Position numbers: made by a program. Below are positions 24,001 to 33,000 of a DNA stretch of 64,000 nucleotides, piece by piece. How positions within the stretch are numbered: the first letter of the stretch is position 1; each line of letters starts with the position of its first letter. The stretch covers positions 704,001 to 768,000 of the forward strand of contig OZ253553.1 of the NCBI GenBank assembly GCA_965262715.1, given 5' to 3'. Source of the stretch: Bdellovibrionales bacterium. Lineage in GTDB: Bacteria; Bdellovibrionota; Bdellovibrionia; Bdellovibrionales; JAUICD01.

Positions 24001-27000
24001 ACACAATTTGCCTGATAATTAGACAATGTTTGTGCAGAGGCTCCTGTCATCATTGTTACAATAATCCAGAAGAATAACAGAAACAGAATAGGTTGAAACA
24101 TTTTCATGCCATAATTTCCAAGCCATTTATATAGTCTAAAACATATCTTAAAATATCAACAACAAAGCCTTGTACAAAATCTACCTATTTTTTTCAAAAA
24201 AAGCATACTGCTAAATAGGAAGTTACACTAATTATAGAGCCGACTGCTAAAAGTCAAGAAAAAATGAAGAACTTAACGCTTATACTCAACTTTTCAGTAA
24301 CAACTTATTATGAGTTAGCATGAACAGCACTTATTTTTAATGGAATTCACACGGATTAAATGTTTCTTGTTTAACTAGTAAAAAACTAACATGATCTTAA
24401 TTGGTTTCTTTCATTATAATAGCATCTTATTTAGAGATTAAAGCATCAATTCTTATTAAGATAATTAGAAGCCATCTCAAAAGTAAAATTTCATAACACT
24501 TGAGAGTTCGAATTGCAAAATGCAAAACATTATTACTTTAAAGAATTCTTCAATAAGCTTGCAATAAATTGTACTGAAGAAGGTTTTTATTCTAAAGTAT
24601 GCTTTGAAAAAACAGAATTAAATACTTCTCATATCAAATAACTTATAACAATCTTTCATAACAACTCATGTTTCTATTGAAATGATGAATCTCATATTAT
24701 ATAACTTTTAAAAATATCTATAATCATAGAAAAGTTGCACTTGCAATTTATATTAAAATAATTGAAGCTATGCTACAGATAAAAGGCTCTTTGCAGGTGT
24801 AGTGTCCCTGCAAAGAGCTGGAGATAAAAAATAAAAATTATCAAGTTATGTGATCATTAAAGGCCGCTTTTTATATTCATCATGTATTTTCCAGTAGGTT
24901 TAGGTGCAACTTGCCCTACACCCATCTCCCAATGGTCTTCTTGAGCTCCTCCTAAATTACCTACAGCGATGACGATAAATTTAGGAGAAAACTTCTCAGT
25001 GTTATCTATTATTGCATCAGTAGGGATTGTTAATGTTCCAGTAGGTAAATAAGCGCACTCACCTGAATTATTACAAAAATCTTCTGTGTCAATTCTTGTT
25101 TTGCTAGCATTGTCTGGGACTGGCGGGCCATCATAATCTGATAGGGTTGGTGTAGTACCCGCCACCCAATCACCTGGATCCGTTGAAGCTAAAGCATTAA
25201 ACCCTGTTTTATAATGAATATCACCACTTGGTGAAAAGCCTAATTGTATAAAGTTGGATGTAGAGTATCCCCATTCAGAATTAAAAGCTATATTCGAAGT
25301 GTATATACCACCTAATATTAACTTAGGCTCAAGTTGCCTGGCTTTCCTTTGATACTTTTGATAGTTAGGTATAGCAATCGCGGACAATACACCAATAATA
25401 GCAACTACAACCATCACCTCAACAAGTGAAAATCCCTTTTGATGAAATCTCTTTTTTATCTGTTTCATAAATATCTACCTTTTATAAAGAAGCTATCATT
25501 TTGCCACAAAATATATTAAATAGCTGTTTATCTATTGCTTCACATCTTAAGGGTTGATCGTTTTCTAAACTGACTTTTAAAGAGCAGTTATAAACTCTAT
25601 ACTGATTAAATTGATATTCACTGGATAGCTGGCCACACACTTCTAAAATCTCTTTGCCTTTAAATAAGTCACATTGAGTCTGACAAACATTGATAAAGGT
25701 GGCATTGCTACCTGTATTATTAACTCTTTCTATATAATCCGTATTAGGCCTGTATTTAGCATAAAAGACATACTGTGCAGCTTCAGTATCTTGCTTTAAA
25801 TGTGTGGATAAAAACTTTTGATCTGCTATATCCATATCCTTGTACATTTTAAGCCTTGCATTGTTGCAGATTAACCCTAGAAGGCCAATAATTACAATGG
25901 CTAGCAAGTAAAGTAATCTTCTAGAGCTTGTTTTTCTAAGTTTCATTTTTTATTTCCTAATTAATATGTTTTAATCTTTTTTATGTAAGAAACCCACCTT
26001 ACAAGAAAGGGATTGGTTTACCCTGTTTACTTAGTTACTTTATTAAACAAGTAAACCCACATTACCTTTAAATATGGGTTTATTTACTTCATAAAGAGAC
26101 TGGTTTTACAGCTTTTTGTTTTGACTGATTGTCTTTCACTCTCTTTTCTAGAAGATCAATTCTTTTGTTTATATGCATGACTGATTTGCTATTGATACCT
26201 GAAAGCATATATAAATGTGAAAAGACTTTCATACCTAAAATACAGCCTATGCTTAAAGAAATAGTGACAGCAATAGCAAGTTCTAATAAATAAAATCTTT
26301 TATTAAGCTTTATATTTTTCATAAAACTCTCTTTTGTTTTTGGTAAATGAATAAAACCCACATTATAGCAATGTGGGTTATTCTTTAATTTAAGATTTTA
26401 TGAAAATTAAAGCCCACTTTTTATATTTATAATTTCTTTTCCATAAGTTATAAGCCATTGATCGGCCTCATCTCCTCCTATATCACCACTTGCGCCTATA
26501 ACAAAACGTCGCTGTATTTTGTTCAGCTCACCATTATTCCAAAGGCCACCACAAGTACCACACGCCCCAGTTCCTGTACAAACTAATGCACCAGTGGCAC
26601 ATGAACATGTTCCGCAAGTACCAGGTTGAGGAGATGCAGGAGTATGACTATATGTATTAGCTACATAAACCTGTAATAAAGCAGCATTATCACAAAAAGT
26701 TGCTTCTCTGCAACCGTCAGGGTCATTTGTATTTACTGTACTATTTAAAACTGTTACTATTGGGCCTCTATAGCCTGCATCGGTACGGTTTGGTATGCTA
26801 GGATTAGCTTTGCTGGCATCAGTCCAGCCTACAGCATATTTAGGAACATCTCCAATGCTTTCAAATCCTATTTGTTGAAAAGATGCTGATAAAAAATTCC
26901 ATTCGTTTTGAAAGGTTATTTGGCTTGCATATAAGCCACTTAACATTGTTTTAGATTCTACCTGCTGTGCTTTTCTTTGAAACTTCTGATAATTAGGTAT

Positions 27001-30000: not shown

Positions 30001-33000
30001 CCCTTTTGATTTAATATTAATATCTCTTTTATCTGTTTCATAAATATCTACCTTTTATAAAGAAGCTATCACTTTGCCACAAAATATATTAAACAGCTCT
30101 TTATCTATTGCTTCACATCTTAAGGGTTGGTCGTTTTCTAAAGTGACTTTTAAAGAGCAGTTGTAAACTCTATACTGATTAAATTGATATTCACTGGATA
30201 ACTGATTACAAACTTCTAATATCTCTTTACCTTTAAATAAGTCACATTGAGTCTGACAAACATTGATAAAGGTGGCATTGCTACCTGTATTATTAACTCT
30301 TTCTATATAATCCGTATTAGGCCTATATTTAGCGTAAAAGGCATATTGTGCAGCTTCAGTATCTTGCTTTAAATGTGTGGATAAAAACTTTTGATCTGCT
30401 ATATCCATATCGCTATACATTTTAAGCCTTGCATTGTTTACAAATAGACCTAGTAGGCCAATAATTACAATGGCTAGCAAGTAAAGTAATCTTCTAGAGC
30501 TTATTTTTCTAAGTTTCATTTTTTATTTCCTAATTAATATGTTTTAATCTTTTTTATGTAAGAAACCCACGTTACAAGGAAGGGATTGGTTTACCCTGTT
30601 TACTTAGTTACTTTATTAAACAAGTAAACCCACATTACCTTTAAATATGGGTTTATTTACTTCATAAAGAGACTGGTTTTACAGCTTTTTGGTTTGACTG
30701 ATTGTCTTTCACTCTCTTTTCTAGAAGATCAATTCTTTTGTTTATATGCATTACTGATTTGCTATTGATGCCTGATAAGAGATATAAATGTGAAAAGACT
30801 TTCATACCTGCAATACAACCTATGCCTAAAGAGATTGTGACAGCGATAGCTAGCTCTAATAAATAAAATCTTTTAAGCTTTATATTATTCATAAAATCCT
30901 CTTTTGTCTTTGGTAAATGAATAAAACCCACATTATAGAATAGAAATGTGGGTTATTCTTAATTTAAGATTTTATGAAACCTAAAGACCACTTTTAAATT
31001 TATAGTTTTTCATATCAATCAACTCCATTTTTTACATTTTGAATTATTTTATCATAATCCATATACCACTGATCAGAGTTCTTTCCTCCTATATCTCCGG
31101 CTGCGCCGATCACAAACCTTCTTTCTAATCTATTTAAAACGCCAGTATTCCACATTCCACAAGATCCTAAACAAGTACCAGTAGTACTACAAGATTTAAC
31201 ACCAGCAGAAGAACATAAACACGTTCCTGTACAAGTACCTGCAGCAGCATTAACTGCAAGAAAATAAGATTTATTACTTGCAAAAGCTTGAATTAAAGCA
31301 GCGTTATTACAGTGAATGTTCTTTCTGCAACCGGCTGGAGTACTTCCTTCACCTGTATTTACTATCTGAGCAGCAATAGCAGCACCGGTAATTTTTGGCC
31401 CTCTATAAGTTGCATCAGCAGCTGTAGGAATACTAGTGGCAGTTCTACTGGCGTTGGCCCATCCTACATTATATTTAGGAGCATCTCCAATAGCCTCAAA
31501 ACCAATTTGTTGAAAAGATGCTGACATAAAGTTCCATTCATTCATAAAAGTGATTTGATTGGCATATAACCCACTCATCATTGTCTTTGCTTCTACTTGT
31601 TGTGATTTTCTTTGAAACTTCTGATAGTTAGGTATAGCGATCGCCGCTAAAATACCAATAATGGCAACTACCACCATTAACTCCACTAGTGAAAAACCTT
31701 TTTGATTTTTCACTTTATTATATTTTCTTAAGAACTTTTTCATGATAAAGACCCCCTATTTCATAAAAAATAAATAAATATTGTTTAAAGTAATAAATTT
31801 AAATTTTCTATATCCTTTTTCTTTTATGTGTCTTCTTAAGCTGCTTAATTTGAAAGAAAAGATGACCAAAAATATCAAAAATGAGAGCCTTAAAAGCCAA
31901 GTCAAAAGACTAGATTTTAACGTAACTGGACTGTAACTTACGTACATAAGTTACAGTATCAAGTTCCTAAGATTATTACCGATATAGTTAATTGAAAGGA
32001 TTTTTTAGTGATGGTCATTAGTAGGGAAATACACCAAAAACATCAATGATTTTAAGGGTACACCACTGTAACTTATGTACGTAAGTTACAGTGCTAAGTA
32101 GTTGAAATCATTAGAATACTAGACGGCCTAGTCTAGTATTAAGACAACATTTAAGTTCAGAAAATAATAAAAACGTTGAATATTGATAAATAGTTTGTAT
32201 CTAAGCAGAACAACTCCTTATATTTTCATTTTAACGAGAAAAAAACTCAAGGAAATTTTCCTTAACATTTTGTAAAAAAATAAAAAGTATCTTCTTACTA
32301 AAAAATAAACATGCTTTTGAGGTAGTCAGCTTTTTGCTGAAGGTGTAACCCTTCAGGCTGACTACCCAAAAGTGGTCAGAGACCAGTTTATTTTTAGTGA
32401 AACAACATATTGATAAAACATCTGTCTCTCAACAGGACAACTTTAAGTTTATTGGTAATTTGTTAAAGAGTAACCAAGTTTTCAGAAACAATTTCCTTAA
32501 CATCATGTAAAAAAATGAAGAGAATCTCTTTCCTAAAAGTGAACAGGTTTTTGAGACAATCAGCATTTTCTTGAAGATGTAAGTCTTCAGGCTGATTGTC
32601 CAAAAATGGCCAGAGGCCAGTTCATTTTTAGGGAAACAGAACAACTCCTTATATTTTCATTTTAACGAGAAAAAAACTCAAGGAAATTTTCCTTAACATT
32701 TTGTAAAAAAATAAAAAGTATCTTCTTACTAAAAAATAAACATGCTTTTGAGGTAGTCAGCTTTTTGCTGAAGGTGTAACCCTTCAGGCTGACTACCCAA
32801 AAGTGGTCAGAGACCAGTTTATTTTTAGTGAAACAACATATTGATAAAACATCTGTCTCTCAACAGGACAACTTTAAGTTTATTGGTAATTTGTTAAAGA
32901 GTAACCAAGTTTTCAGAAACAATTTCCTTAACATCATGTAAAAAAATGAAGAGAATCTCTTTCCTAAAAGTGAACAGGTTTTTGAGACAATCAGCATTTT

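Follow-up and report, generated by a model that had tools for sequence, protein, structure and literature searches.

Why would one bacterium keep so many copies of the same pilin cassette, and how might it choose among them? The window analysed here, a stretch of 64,000 nucleotides from a Bdellovibrionales genome, carries two such cassettes in tandem, both on the minus strand and both in the order P2-B-A-P1, with P2 first. ORF calling over 24857-31743 (positions are those of the window unless given as genome positions) confirmed the repeated four-gene pilin cassette and the tandem pair that a first-pass annotation had proposed. Based on the analyses presented below, we suggest that the bacterium can probably turn alternative pilus fibres, and further surface proteins too, on and off locus by locus.

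Cassette 1 begins with the P2 pilin (233 aa; 26407-27108, minus strand; ORF with an N_methyl match). A scan for terminator-like structures placed a hairpin with a T-rich tail directly 3' of its stop codon (26355-26379, minus strand), a possible partial terminator. The B protein (26089-26322, minus strand) has 77 aa from the ATG common to its paralogues, and its ORF extends to 26361. Between B and A the scan found a further hairpin with a 12-bp stem (26052-26082, minus strand), which recurs between the B and A genes of cassette 2 (30625-30655). The A protein (154 aa; ORF at 25482-25946, minus strand) is followed by P1 (203 aa; ORF at 24857-25468, minus strand), the final gene, whose start codon lies 13 nt past the A stop. 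This P1 matches N_methyl at 37.4 bits, against a cut-off of 21.2, and shares 79-88% identity with the four other P1 copies (blastp). Cassette 2, also on the minus strand, encodes a P2 of 242 aa (31015-31743; 63% identity to the cassette 1 P2), a B protein of 76 aa from the paralogue-common ATG (30662-30892), an A protein of 154 aa (30055-30519; 94% identity to the cassette 1 copy) and a P1 of 205 aa (29424-30041; ORF with an N_methyl match). The full B ORFs comprise 89-90 aa (26089-26361 and 30662-30931). N_methyl scores exceed the Pfam cut-off in all four window pilins (35.6-41.8 bits vs 21.2). In pairwise comparisons P1, P2, A and B all have a dN/dS below 1, so these are maintained coding genes and not chance ORFs.

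Genome-wide, blastp on our own ORF set reproduced the family sizes reported in the first pass (20 pilins, 11 A proteins and 8 B proteins), and the cassette positions agree exactly, with the complete P2-B-A-P1 order at five loci and partial forms at five others. All 20 pilins are full-length and retain the leader, which reads QKGFSL(V/T/I)E in 19 copies, including the four in the window, and GISMIE in the remaining one. Type IV pilins of the PilA type (class III signal peptide) are recognised by a short basic leader that ends in Gly(-1), by Phe(+1) and Glu(+5), and by about 20 hydrophobic residues thereafter, and we classify these copies accordingly. Assignment to the Myxococcus-type PilA equivalog of NCBIfam (PilA_Myxo, NF041775) was rejected; this model aligns with the N-terminal 80-110 residues only, at 63.6-80.2 bits vs a cut-off of 400. 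In P2 the N- and C-terminal parts are conserved around a hypervariable, Cys-rich middle, and its globular part evolves fastest (dN 0.37-0.79 across cassettes). We consider P2 a candidate for a large PilA-type major pilin with a fast-evolving, Cys-rich surface region, and P1 a conserved second pilin. The machinery of type IVa pili is encoded as well, including PilB/PilT-type ATPases (T2SSE, genome position 2555743 and others), PilC (T2SSF, 2553214-2554188), a prepilin peptidase (PilD; Peptidase_A24, 244094) and a secretin (250044).

Like prepilins, A and B cross the inner membrane once, with N-in/C-out topology, and they are lineage-specific. The A protein of cassette 1 has a basic N-terminus, a single transmembrane helix and an outer domain with six invariant Cys (AF2 model pLDDT 80; dN/dS 0.11-0.16), and the window copies match no Pfam or NCBIfam family. 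B copies likewise have no match above cut-off in Pfam or NCBIfam. The N-terminus of the cassette 1 copy, K-R-F-Y-L-L-E-L, is pilin-like and keeps Glu at +5, but Gly(-1) is replaced by Arg; hhalign aligned KRFYLLEL to the pilin KGFSLVEL with a probability of 25%, and the profiles of A and B resemble those of pilins only weakly. A role for A and B as pilus accessory proteins finds no support in a fold, a family or a predicted complex. Their position, their prepilin-like topology and the retention of the pilin-A pair in a congener nevertheless make it a reasonable inference that they may act as pilin-specific accessory factors.

Eight of the 78 ORFs of at least 900 aa start with G-[MF]-x-L-[VL]-E and then a run of hydrophobic residues. 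These giants of about 950-1840 aa stand isolated amid housekeeping genes and have a conserved 420-aa head, and the canonical class III leader, noticed earlier in at least five of them, is present in all eight. A modular or minor pilin would pair such a leader with a pilin-fold head that bears an extra module. At E<=0.01 Pfam assigns none of the eight to a family, and an AF2 model covering the N-terminal 420 aa (pLDDT 64) has no PDB match at E<=0.001. With neither a recognisable pilin globular fold nor a known adhesin domain, they lend no support to their earlier description as giant modular tip adhesins; nor did any of the tests made here support a role in dealing with a eukaryotic host.

A possible means of choosing among the cassettes lies upstream of P2. 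In both cassettes a 163-bp segment is found about 185 bp before the P2 gene, from which it is separated by a leader of 186 nt (conserved; 27109-27294, minus strand, in cassette 1). The segment, here called an inverton, ends in inverted 28-bp sites that consist of an 11-bp arm, a 6-bp asymmetric spacer and a second 11-bp arm. In inverton 1 the gene-proximal site (27295-27322) and the inverted gene-distal site (27430-27457) are 96% complementary over 28 nt, with a single mismatch, in the spacer, and 107 nt between them. Inverton 2 (31930-32092) has sites at 31930-31957 and 32065-32092 around a 107-bp interior, and its arms can be extended to 45 nt with 82% complementarity. Beyond inverton 1, the distal flank of this upstream element (27458-27615, minus strand) is conserved as well and is common to the other P2 loci and two giants. 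The 28-bp pattern, ACTGTAACTTA-CGTACA-TAAGTTACAGT, occurs at 38 genome sites vs one for a reversed control, and 36 of the 38 form 18 inverted pairs of 163 bp end to end. All 18 pairs sit inside a conserved element of 270-520 bp directly upstream of a gene, and they precede eight pilin cassettes (at P2), two giants and eight large putative lipoproteins (717-1082 aa).

The arrangement recurs in a congener (genome G401), where 16 paired sites of related sequence, ACTGTGACTTT-TGTATA-AAAGTTACAGT, measure 373 bp end to end and precede lipoprotein genes as well as pilin genes that have an A-family partner. The interiors, 107 bp in this genome and 317 bp in G401, are unrelated between the species. The sites of both species fit two inverted arms of about 11 bp around an asymmetric centre of 6-8 bp, which we take to be the layout of a Xer/dif-like tyrosine-recombinase core site.

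The interior of each inverton carries what may be a sigma-28-type promoter. The motif is TCAAGTTA-N11-GCCGATAT in inverton 1 (27324-27350) and TCAAGTTC-N11-ACCGATAT in inverton 2 (31959-31985), in both cases on the plus strand and pointing away from the cassette. Its consensus in this genome is T(T/C)AAGTT(A/C)-N11-(A/G)CCGATAT; the CCGATAT core is invariant in 18 of 18 copies, the spacer is variable and one copy has C for the last A of the first box. G401 has TAAAGTTT and then A(A/C)CGATAA in 15 of 16 copies, and TATAGTTT in one. By sequence, the motif fits the attack-phase FliA consensus mapped experimentally in Bdellovibrio bacteriovorus, given in passages of PMC3627812 as TTAAG-N16-CCGATA, with a box spacing of 15 nt here vs N16 there. 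Of 23 genome matches to AAGTT-N12-14-CCGATA, 18 are inside invertons; the looser motif has five matches outside them, below the control (13). The strict E. coli-type sigma-28 consensus shows no genome-wide enrichment (64 matches vs 78 in the reversed control). The genome encodes FliA (268 bits vs a cut-off of 189.6), and a flagellin N-domain was not found in it.

We suspect, with reasonable though far from full confidence, that the cassettes are alternative type IV pilus modules, each governed by an ON/OFF DNA switch of its own. In this scenario, a site-specific recombinase would flip the 163-bp segment between its inverted 28-bp sites. The segment would carry a FliA (sigma-28)-type promoter, so that one orientation would be ON, with transcription running through the leader into P2-B-A-P1, and the other OFF, with the promoter reading away; A and B would act as factors specific to their pilin. 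Since the same switch heads pilins, giants and lipoproteins, a population could display varied combinations of surface structures.

Evidence for inversion comes from the orientation of the segments. Seventeen of the 18 invertons have the same orientation relative to the gene. The sole exception (genome positions 1186612-1186774) has to be reverse-complemented to match its twin at 1719672-1719834, and then does so at 163 of 163 positions; over the 107-bp core the match is 107 of 107 positions inverted vs 56 of 120 direct, the gene-side flank is identical over 300 of 300 positions, and no bases were gained or lost at the boundaries. Two recently duplicated cassettes thus differ by a clean inversion. 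In G401, 14 segments face one way and two are flipped. Both orientations are therefore seen between loci, namely among near-identical paralogues and across the G401 copies. The earlier proposal of a switchable set of alternative fibres gains strong structural support from a putatively promoter-bearing invertible element before eight pilin cassettes and two of the eight giants, and the accompanying caveat that there was no evidence of switching is superseded; that switching is ongoing is what we infer.

One could instead suppose that the inversions are old and fixed, and that these are ordinary paralogous pilin operons, all expressed or conventionally regulated by FliA or another factor, with no phase variation. 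The few flipped copies (1 of 18 and 2 of 16) would agree with this, as would the lack of visible heterogeneity at single loci, where the look covered assembled contigs whose ends fall inside the inverton site and give no joints. Weak sigma-70-like matches also lie outside the segment, in the leader and the distal flank, and because of them constitutive transcription remains conceivable. However, over the 34 invertons of the two species conservation is far higher in the 28-bp sites than in the interiors, as would be expected only of sites that remain in use. The flip in this genome separates copies otherwise identical over 300 bp and is therefore very recent, and a promoter pointing away in 31 of 34 copies would make no sense if the arrangement were fixed. 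We regard fixed inversions as improbable.

If the switch is active, the next question is which orientation is ON. From the motif match alone, both window cassettes are predicted to be OFF in this assembly and the cassette at genome positions 1183780-1186428 ON. The call could be the reverse, with the majority orientation ON, most cassettes co-expressed and the flipped minority OFF, as the common state in a consensus assembly could equally be the ON state. Against this, the interiors of the two species, different as they are, each have a single strongly conserved promoter-like motif, which points away from the gene when the segment is in its majority orientation, and no conserved sigma-70-type match toward the gene was found inside the segment; we think a majority-ON switch quite unlikely. 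Least credible, and very improbable, is that the unit represents a MITE, a small transposon that is non-autonomous and has 28-bp terminal inverted repeats, inserted by chance upstream of these genes in either orientation and without regulating them: it is short, has terminal inverted repeats and 18 copies, and resides in a genome where IS elements and small dispersed repeats abound, but it always occupies the same place in a longer homologous element with flanks conserved on both sides, always lies upstream of one of three surface-protein families, shares one orientation in all copies but one, whose flank and boundaries are intact, shows by eye no target-site duplication, and recurs in a second species with a related site and a different interior.

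Under the switch model, four recombinases are candidates for the flipping enzyme, namely two serine recombinase ORFs and two tyrosine recombinases, the latter both conserved in G401. The enzyme is most likely to be one of the tyrosine pair, and the near-palindromic site with its asymmetric 6-bp centre appears to fit this class better than a serine enzyme. The 184-aa tyrosine candidate consists of a catalytic domain only, with R, K, HxxR, H and Y present, and matches models of tyrosine-type DNA invertases at E values of 6e-9 and 2.5e-11, scores far below the cut-off. A serine recombinase of 255 aa adjoins one cassette (Mpi model, 41.9 bits vs a cut-off of 272), and at a distance of 6 kb from another is a truncated-looking serine recombinase ORF of 207 aa. 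The window loci themselves have no linked recombinase gene.

A bolder version of the model, which we consider rather unlikely as a whole, is that a non-flagellated lineage of Bdellovibrionota rewired its orphan FliA to 18 invertible sigma-28 promoters, served by one recombinase in trans and heading at least eight alternative fibres. To each fibre would belong two helpers that select its pilin or prime it for assembly, namely B as an uncleavable pilin mimic and A as a disulfide-rich partner in the membrane; the giants, of 1000-1800 aa, would be prepilin-anchored adhesins on the pilus and the largest modular pilins known, and lipoproteins would be under the same switches. If true, each cell would choose among these fibres via independent switches.

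It is useful to compare this system with known ones. In E. coli, fimS controls chaperone-usher fimbriae at one locus only; it has 9-bp repeats and a sigma-70 promoter, and next to it are the genes for FimB and FimE, short tyrosine recombinases of about 200 aa that lack an N-terminal core-binding domain. Here too a fimbrial subunit gene is preceded by a short, putatively promoter-bearing invertible element, and the 184-aa candidate resembles FimB/FimE in build, but there are many loci, type IV pilins, 28-bp sites and a sigma-28-type motif, and recombinase genes are not linked to the window loci. The H-segment of Salmonella is inverted at one locus by the serine invertase Hin, with Fis and an enhancer, and controls flagellin; it carries a sigma-28-dependent promoter on an invertible segment, as is putatively the case here, whereas our genome has many loci and cargo other than flagellin. 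In Moraxella, Piv inverts pilin coding segments, and Neisseria uses gene conversion between pilE and pilS. As in these genera, several alternative type IV pilin sequences per genome would serve surface variation, but here the genes are complete, with their own leader and promoter region, and inversion spares the coding sequence. Variation of the pilE/pilS type was rejected, given that it calls for silent, promoterless, 5'-truncated copies as donors to one expression locus, whereas no silent truncated copies exist here and all 20 pilins are full-length. The tfpO, tfpW/X, tfpY and tfpZ genes downstream of pilA in Pseudomonas aeruginosa and fimB of Dichelobacter are pilin-allele-specific accessory genes, to which A and B can be likened by description as small membrane-associated proteins encoded right after a given pilin allele and co-diverging with it.

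Mpi of Bacteroides fragilis is a serine recombinase whose cargo is capsule loci. In that species, as suspected here, one recombinase system is thought to serve many dispersed promoter invertons for surface architecture, whereas our site suits a tyrosine recombinase better and the cargo differs. Promoter invertons under this global invertase are attributed to Coyne et al. 2003 in passages of PMC2268961.

As for the proteins themselves, our pilins resemble PilA of Myxococcus xanthus and the large major pilins of Myxococcota and Bdellovibrionota (passages of PMC11046646) in their GFSLxE class III signal peptide and mature lengths of about 190-245 aa; the P2 copies are longer than the 170-204 aa given there for Bdellovibrionota and have a Cys-rich hypervariable insert. 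The giants may parallel the modular pilins PilB and PilC of Streptococcus sanguinis, as outlined in 10.1101/2021.01.27.428410, in that a bulky additional module follows a pilin leader and helix at the N-terminus, but at 950-1840 aa they are stand-alone genes without a recognisable pilin fold or adhesin domain. A further likeness, in organisation, is to the mpl (P35) lipoproteins of Mycoplasma penetrans, each gene with one invertible promoter (Horino et al. 2003, as related in passages of PMC2268961). In both, dispersed paralogous surface genes each have a short, promoter-bearing invertible segment (putatively so here), and Xer-like tyrosine recombinases acting in trans are suspected; unlike mpl, the segments here belong to a diderm member of the Bdellovibrionota and have as their cargo pilin cassettes, giant prepilin-like proteins and lipoproteins, with 28-bp sites (11-6-11) and a promoter of putative sigma-28 type. 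Multi-locus promoter inversion is already known, and the form found here is new.

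Both pilin cassettes of the window are preceded by a predicted inverton. An element of 270-520 bp stands before the start codon of 8 genes for P2 (the long pilin that opens each cassette), 2 genes for giants (proteins of 950-1840 aa with a prepilin-like leader; genome 508527 and 514155) and 8 genes for a set of paralogues of 717-1082 aa whose N-termini resemble signal peptides. Inside the element is a 163-bp segment with one 28-bp site at each end, the two sites being inverted relative to each other (window 27295-27322 and 27430-27457 for cassette 1; 31930-31957 and 32065-32092 for cassette 2). 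The site has the architecture ACTGTAACTTA-CGTACA-TAAGTTACAGT, in which two 11-bp inverted arms enclose an asymmetric 6-bp centre. Genome-wide, the site pattern matches 38 times (reversed control, 1), and 18 pairs account for 36 of these matches. The eight 717-1082-aa paralogues (N-terminus MKKIMKFFRVIKK...) have no confident Pfam family, and the same inverton lies upstream of each; they are encoded at genome 54661-86446 (four within 32 kb), 872615-876171, 1453021-1456448, 1629833-1633401 and 2736758-2739249.

Orientation relative to the downstream gene is the same in 17 of the 18 segments. The lone flipped segment (genome 1186612-1186774) is found at a cassette that shares a recent 3.3-kb duplication with the cassette at 1716844-1719488. 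Within this duplicate pair the gene-side flank is identical at 300 of 300 positions, and the 107-bp core is identical at 107 of 107 positions only when reverse-complemented (56 of 120 in direct comparison). The segment at 1186612-1186774 is thus inverted relative to its twin, precisely between its two sites. The first-pass annotation had read the pili as a switchable set of alternative fibres, and the paired sites together with the site-bounded inversion substantially strengthen the switching part of that claim. Four runs cover the flipped locus with assembled contigs only; these end inside the 28-bp site (4133-4136 of the locus sequence L052) and begin again at 4568, and no joint was reported. 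Elsewhere, at genome 1006325-1012474, two single sites with an ATATAT-type palindromic centre are inverted and separated by 6.1 kb, in the region between two divergent pilin-A pairs, with a degenerate copy of the inverton promoter end at both inner ends. This region may be a large invertible segment, or a remnant of recombination between invertons.

Each segment carries an interior motif, T(T/C)AAGTT(A/C)-N11-(A/G)CCGATAT, whose CCGATAT core is identical in all 18 copies in this genome; the spacer is variable, and in one copy C replaces the last A of the first box. By sequence, this motif is a putative promoter of the FliA/sigma-28 pattern. Mapping in Bdellovibrio bacteriovorus placed TTAAG-N16-CCGATA at 92 of 140 promoters of the attack phase (PMC3627812), and the box spacing is 15 nt here versus 16 in that consensus. 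FliA is encoded in the genome (268 bits versus a cut-off of 189.6), the gene for this FliA/WhiG-type sigma factor lying at genome 2341168-2341842; a flagellin N-domain was not found in the genome, which is 92.7% complete. The pattern AAGTT-N12-14-CCGATA has 23 matches in the genome, 18 of them inside invertons, and the strict sigma-28 consensus has no genome-wide enrichment. In this genome and in its congener, segments in the majority orientation have the motif pointing away from the gene, and the flipped minority have it pointing toward the gene. Given these directions, the encoded FliA and the concentration of the motif in invertons, we infer that the majority orientation, which includes both window cassettes, is OFF and that the 1186 locus is ON. 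The best sigma-28-type match outside the invertons (TAAAGTTT-N12-GCCGATAG, genome 1330439-1330517) is located just upstream of a 768-aa gene without a family (1328133-1330439), and a 353-aa prepilin-like gene lies 2 kb from it, at 1332782.

A dispersed repeat of ~150 bp, with hundreds of copies in the genome, is found just past the distal flank of each inverton (window 27572-27766 and 32209-33070). Upstream of cassette 2 there are four tandem units, including two identical 71-aa ORFs (32429-32644 and 32860-33075). Every unit has a short GC hairpin and a T-run on the plus strand, and these hairpins could halt transcripts made in the OFF state.

In the congeneric genome, a search allowing up to 3 mismatches gives 22 related sites. 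In the 18 regions examined there are 16 inverted pairs, 373 bp from end to end, with sites of the form ACTGTGACTTT-TGTATA-AAAGTTACAGT, in addition to 4 single sites. The pairs lie upstream of pilin genes, often with an A-family gene next (A being the 154-aa cassette protein), and of lipoprotein-like genes; 14 are oriented one way relative to the gene and 2 are flipped. The sites are alike between the two species and the interiors are unrelated (107 versus 317 bp). As for the motif, TAAAGTTT followed by A(A/C)CGATAA is kept in 15 of 16 copies in the congener, with TATAGTTT in one. Among 39 other relatives, a search at up to 3 mismatches gave a single match in each of 3, and the reversed control also gave 1 in 2 of those. 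The exact-arm pattern had no match in public genome contigs, and in public metagenome contigs it matched 3 single sites, unpaired and in unrelated contexts, which we take as chance palindromes.

The site is a near-perfect palindrome, with asymmetry confined to the 6-bp centre and a central TA dinucleotide, a geometry for which a tyrosine recombinase is a better fit than a serine invertase. The genome encodes two PF00589 proteins, a XerD-like enzyme of 320 aa with a SAM-like N-domain (genome 1303570-1304532) and a short enzyme of 184 aa (genome 892897-893454), which consists of the catalytic domain only and has the R, K, HxxR, H and Y residues. Both have orthologues in the congener (53% and 72% identity) and in another genome of the family, in which a search at up to 3 mismatches gave no site. 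We consider the short tyrosine enzyme the probable inverton recombinase. The Xer-like enzyme is a possible, though rather unlikely, agent. A serine enzyme is improbable. Of two serine recombinase ORFs, the 255-aa one is 550 bp downstream from the cassette at 1841827 and has relatives in several copies in the congener and also in two family genomes without the sites; the 207-aa one appears to be truncated and is 6 kb away from the cassette at 2056698. The 255-aa gene (genome 1840509-1841276), with an IS200/IS605-like gene beside it, fills the place of P1, the short pilin, in the partial cassette at 1841827-1843387.

The genome is a single contig of 2.94 Mb with a GC content of 33.6%. Family counts from the first-pass annotation (20 pilins, 11 A and 8 B proteins) were reproduced genome-wide, as were its 5 complete and 5 partial cassette positions. 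At window 24857-31743 the four-gene cassette occurs twice in tandem, both copies on the minus strand. In transcription order, cassette 1 consists of P2 (26407-27108, 233 aa), B (ORF 26089-26361, 77 aa from the ATG common to the paralogues), A (25482-25946, 154 aa) and P1 (24857-25468, 203 aa), and cassette 2 of P2 (31015-31743, 242 aa), B (ORF 30662-30931, 76 aa from that ATG), A (30055-30519, 154 aa) and P1 (29424-30041, 205 aa). Hairpins lie 3' of P2 and 3' of B, and the gap between A and P1 is 13 nt, a layout from which P2 output would exceed that of B-A-P1. Between the cassettes, on the minus strand, is a gene for a 312-aa HAD-like hydrolase (28050-28988; Pfam HAD 26 bits, cut-off 27). Just 3' of cassette 1, a 134-bp sequence (24620-24749) has at least 20 copies in the genome at 74-78% identity. 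Rfam detected no family in window 24000-33400 at E<=0.1.

All four window pilins match Pfam N_methyl above the cut-off, and the leader of P2 and P1 (QKGFSLVE...) is a canonical class III signal peptide. Large major pilins have been described for Myxococcota and Bdellovibrionota (PMC11046646). P2 and P1 resemble these but are not equivalogs, since the NCBIfam model for Myxococcus PilA aligns with no more than their N-terminal 80-110 residues and scores 63.6-80.2 bits (cut-off 400). In an alignment of the 20 pilins the N-terminal third and the C-terminal end are conserved, and P2 has a hypervariable insert containing 5-8 Cys. Genes at other places in the genome encode a prepilin peptidase, PilB/PilT-type ATPases, PilC and a secretin. 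Four adjacent prepilin-like genes at genome 2486958-2489501 (161-260 aa, leaders G-[MF]-T-L-[IV]-E) resemble a pseudopilin cluster of type II secretion, distinct from the PilA-type family.

A and B have no Pfam or NCBIfam match above cut-off. A and B may, as the first-pass annotation proposed, be accessory proteins of the pilus. A combines a basic N-terminus with a single transmembrane helix and an outer domain in which six Cys are invariant. The N-terminus of B (K-R-F-Y-L-L-E-L) is pilin-like, with Glu at +5, but has Arg where prepilin peptidase needs Gly; two B copies have Gly(-1), and both are without the Glu. Profile-profile comparison with pilins gave probabilities of 20% for A and 25% for B. 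The predicted model of A had no Foldseek match in the PDB at E<=0.001, and the only part aligned by VIA-align was the long N-terminal helix (best Z 5.5). Prediction of a P2-A complex scored 0.00 and gave no verdict. Among 401 genomes sampled from the phylum, family A was found in one, that of the window, and a search of 1.84 billion cluster representatives with its profile yielded just 10 proteins at E<=0.001; of 178 pattern matches checked for loci related to A, none was confirmed.

All eight giants, among 78 ORFs of at least 900 aa, have the leader G-[MF]-x-L-[VL]-E and, after it, a hydrophobic helix, extending an observation made by eye on at least five of them, and all eight are indeed without a Pfam family at E<=0.01. 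Their first ~420 residues are conserved, and the remainder is Cys-rich and varies in length. The head model has no PDB match at E<=0.001; the giants may be tip adhesins, as proposed in the first-pass annotation. Among 8000 candidates scored, 51 relatives were found at E<=0.001, all without Pfam domains and several per related genome. The PilY1 Pfam model had no match, and the control likewise matched no genome. No family emerged for A, B or the giant head from searches by fold or profile, and a language-model atlas returned N_methyl-bearing clusters at a score of only 0.84, which is a lead only. A, B and the giants are three apparently lineage-restricted families.

Pairwise dN/dS is below 1 for every cassette gene (A, 0.11-0.16; B, 0.12-0.37; globular part of P1, 0.10-0.32). 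The globular part of P2 is the most divergent (dN 0.37-0.79 in older pairs, dN/dS 0.28-0.74). Between the two window cassettes the dS of this part of P2 is above that of the neighbouring genes (0.90 versus ~0.22), which points to mosaic cassette histories, with possible exchange of P2 or homogenisation of B-A-P1. IS256-family and IS1634-family transposase genes (window 33446-34687 and 34961-36598) lie directly upstream of the cassette pair, and IS1634-like genes also flank several giants, which suggests that the cassettes and the giant loci spread through IS elements.

If confirmed, these predictions would mean that a bacterium related to predators changes its principal organelle of attachment and invasion by choosing stochastically, through ON/OFF states, among many types of fibre, and that FliA has a role in an organism without flagellin. 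The 28-bp site and small recombinase would also make a compact system to study, and co-regulation with pilins would make the function of A, B and the giants directly testable.

From the perspective of known systems, silent-cassette variation of the Neisseria type is ruled out because all pilin copies are complete genes, and Piv-type inversion of a coding segment because the inverted segment lies outside the coding sequence. Multi-locus promoter inversion is known for Bacteroides capsules and Mycoplasma lipoproteins. In titles and abstract openings we found no published case of a type IV pilin gene behind a promoter inverton, of a promoter inverton in Bdellovibrionota, or of multi-locus promoter inversion with sigma-28 promoters. 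The logic of the predicted system is like that of the mpl family of M. penetrans and of the promoter invertons of Bacteroides, as outlined in PMC2268961, in both of which many dispersed surface genes each have their own invertible promoter, served in trans. Unlike in those systems, the cargo consists of type IV pilin cassettes and giant prepilin-like proteins, and the promoter type, the site and the phylum also differ.
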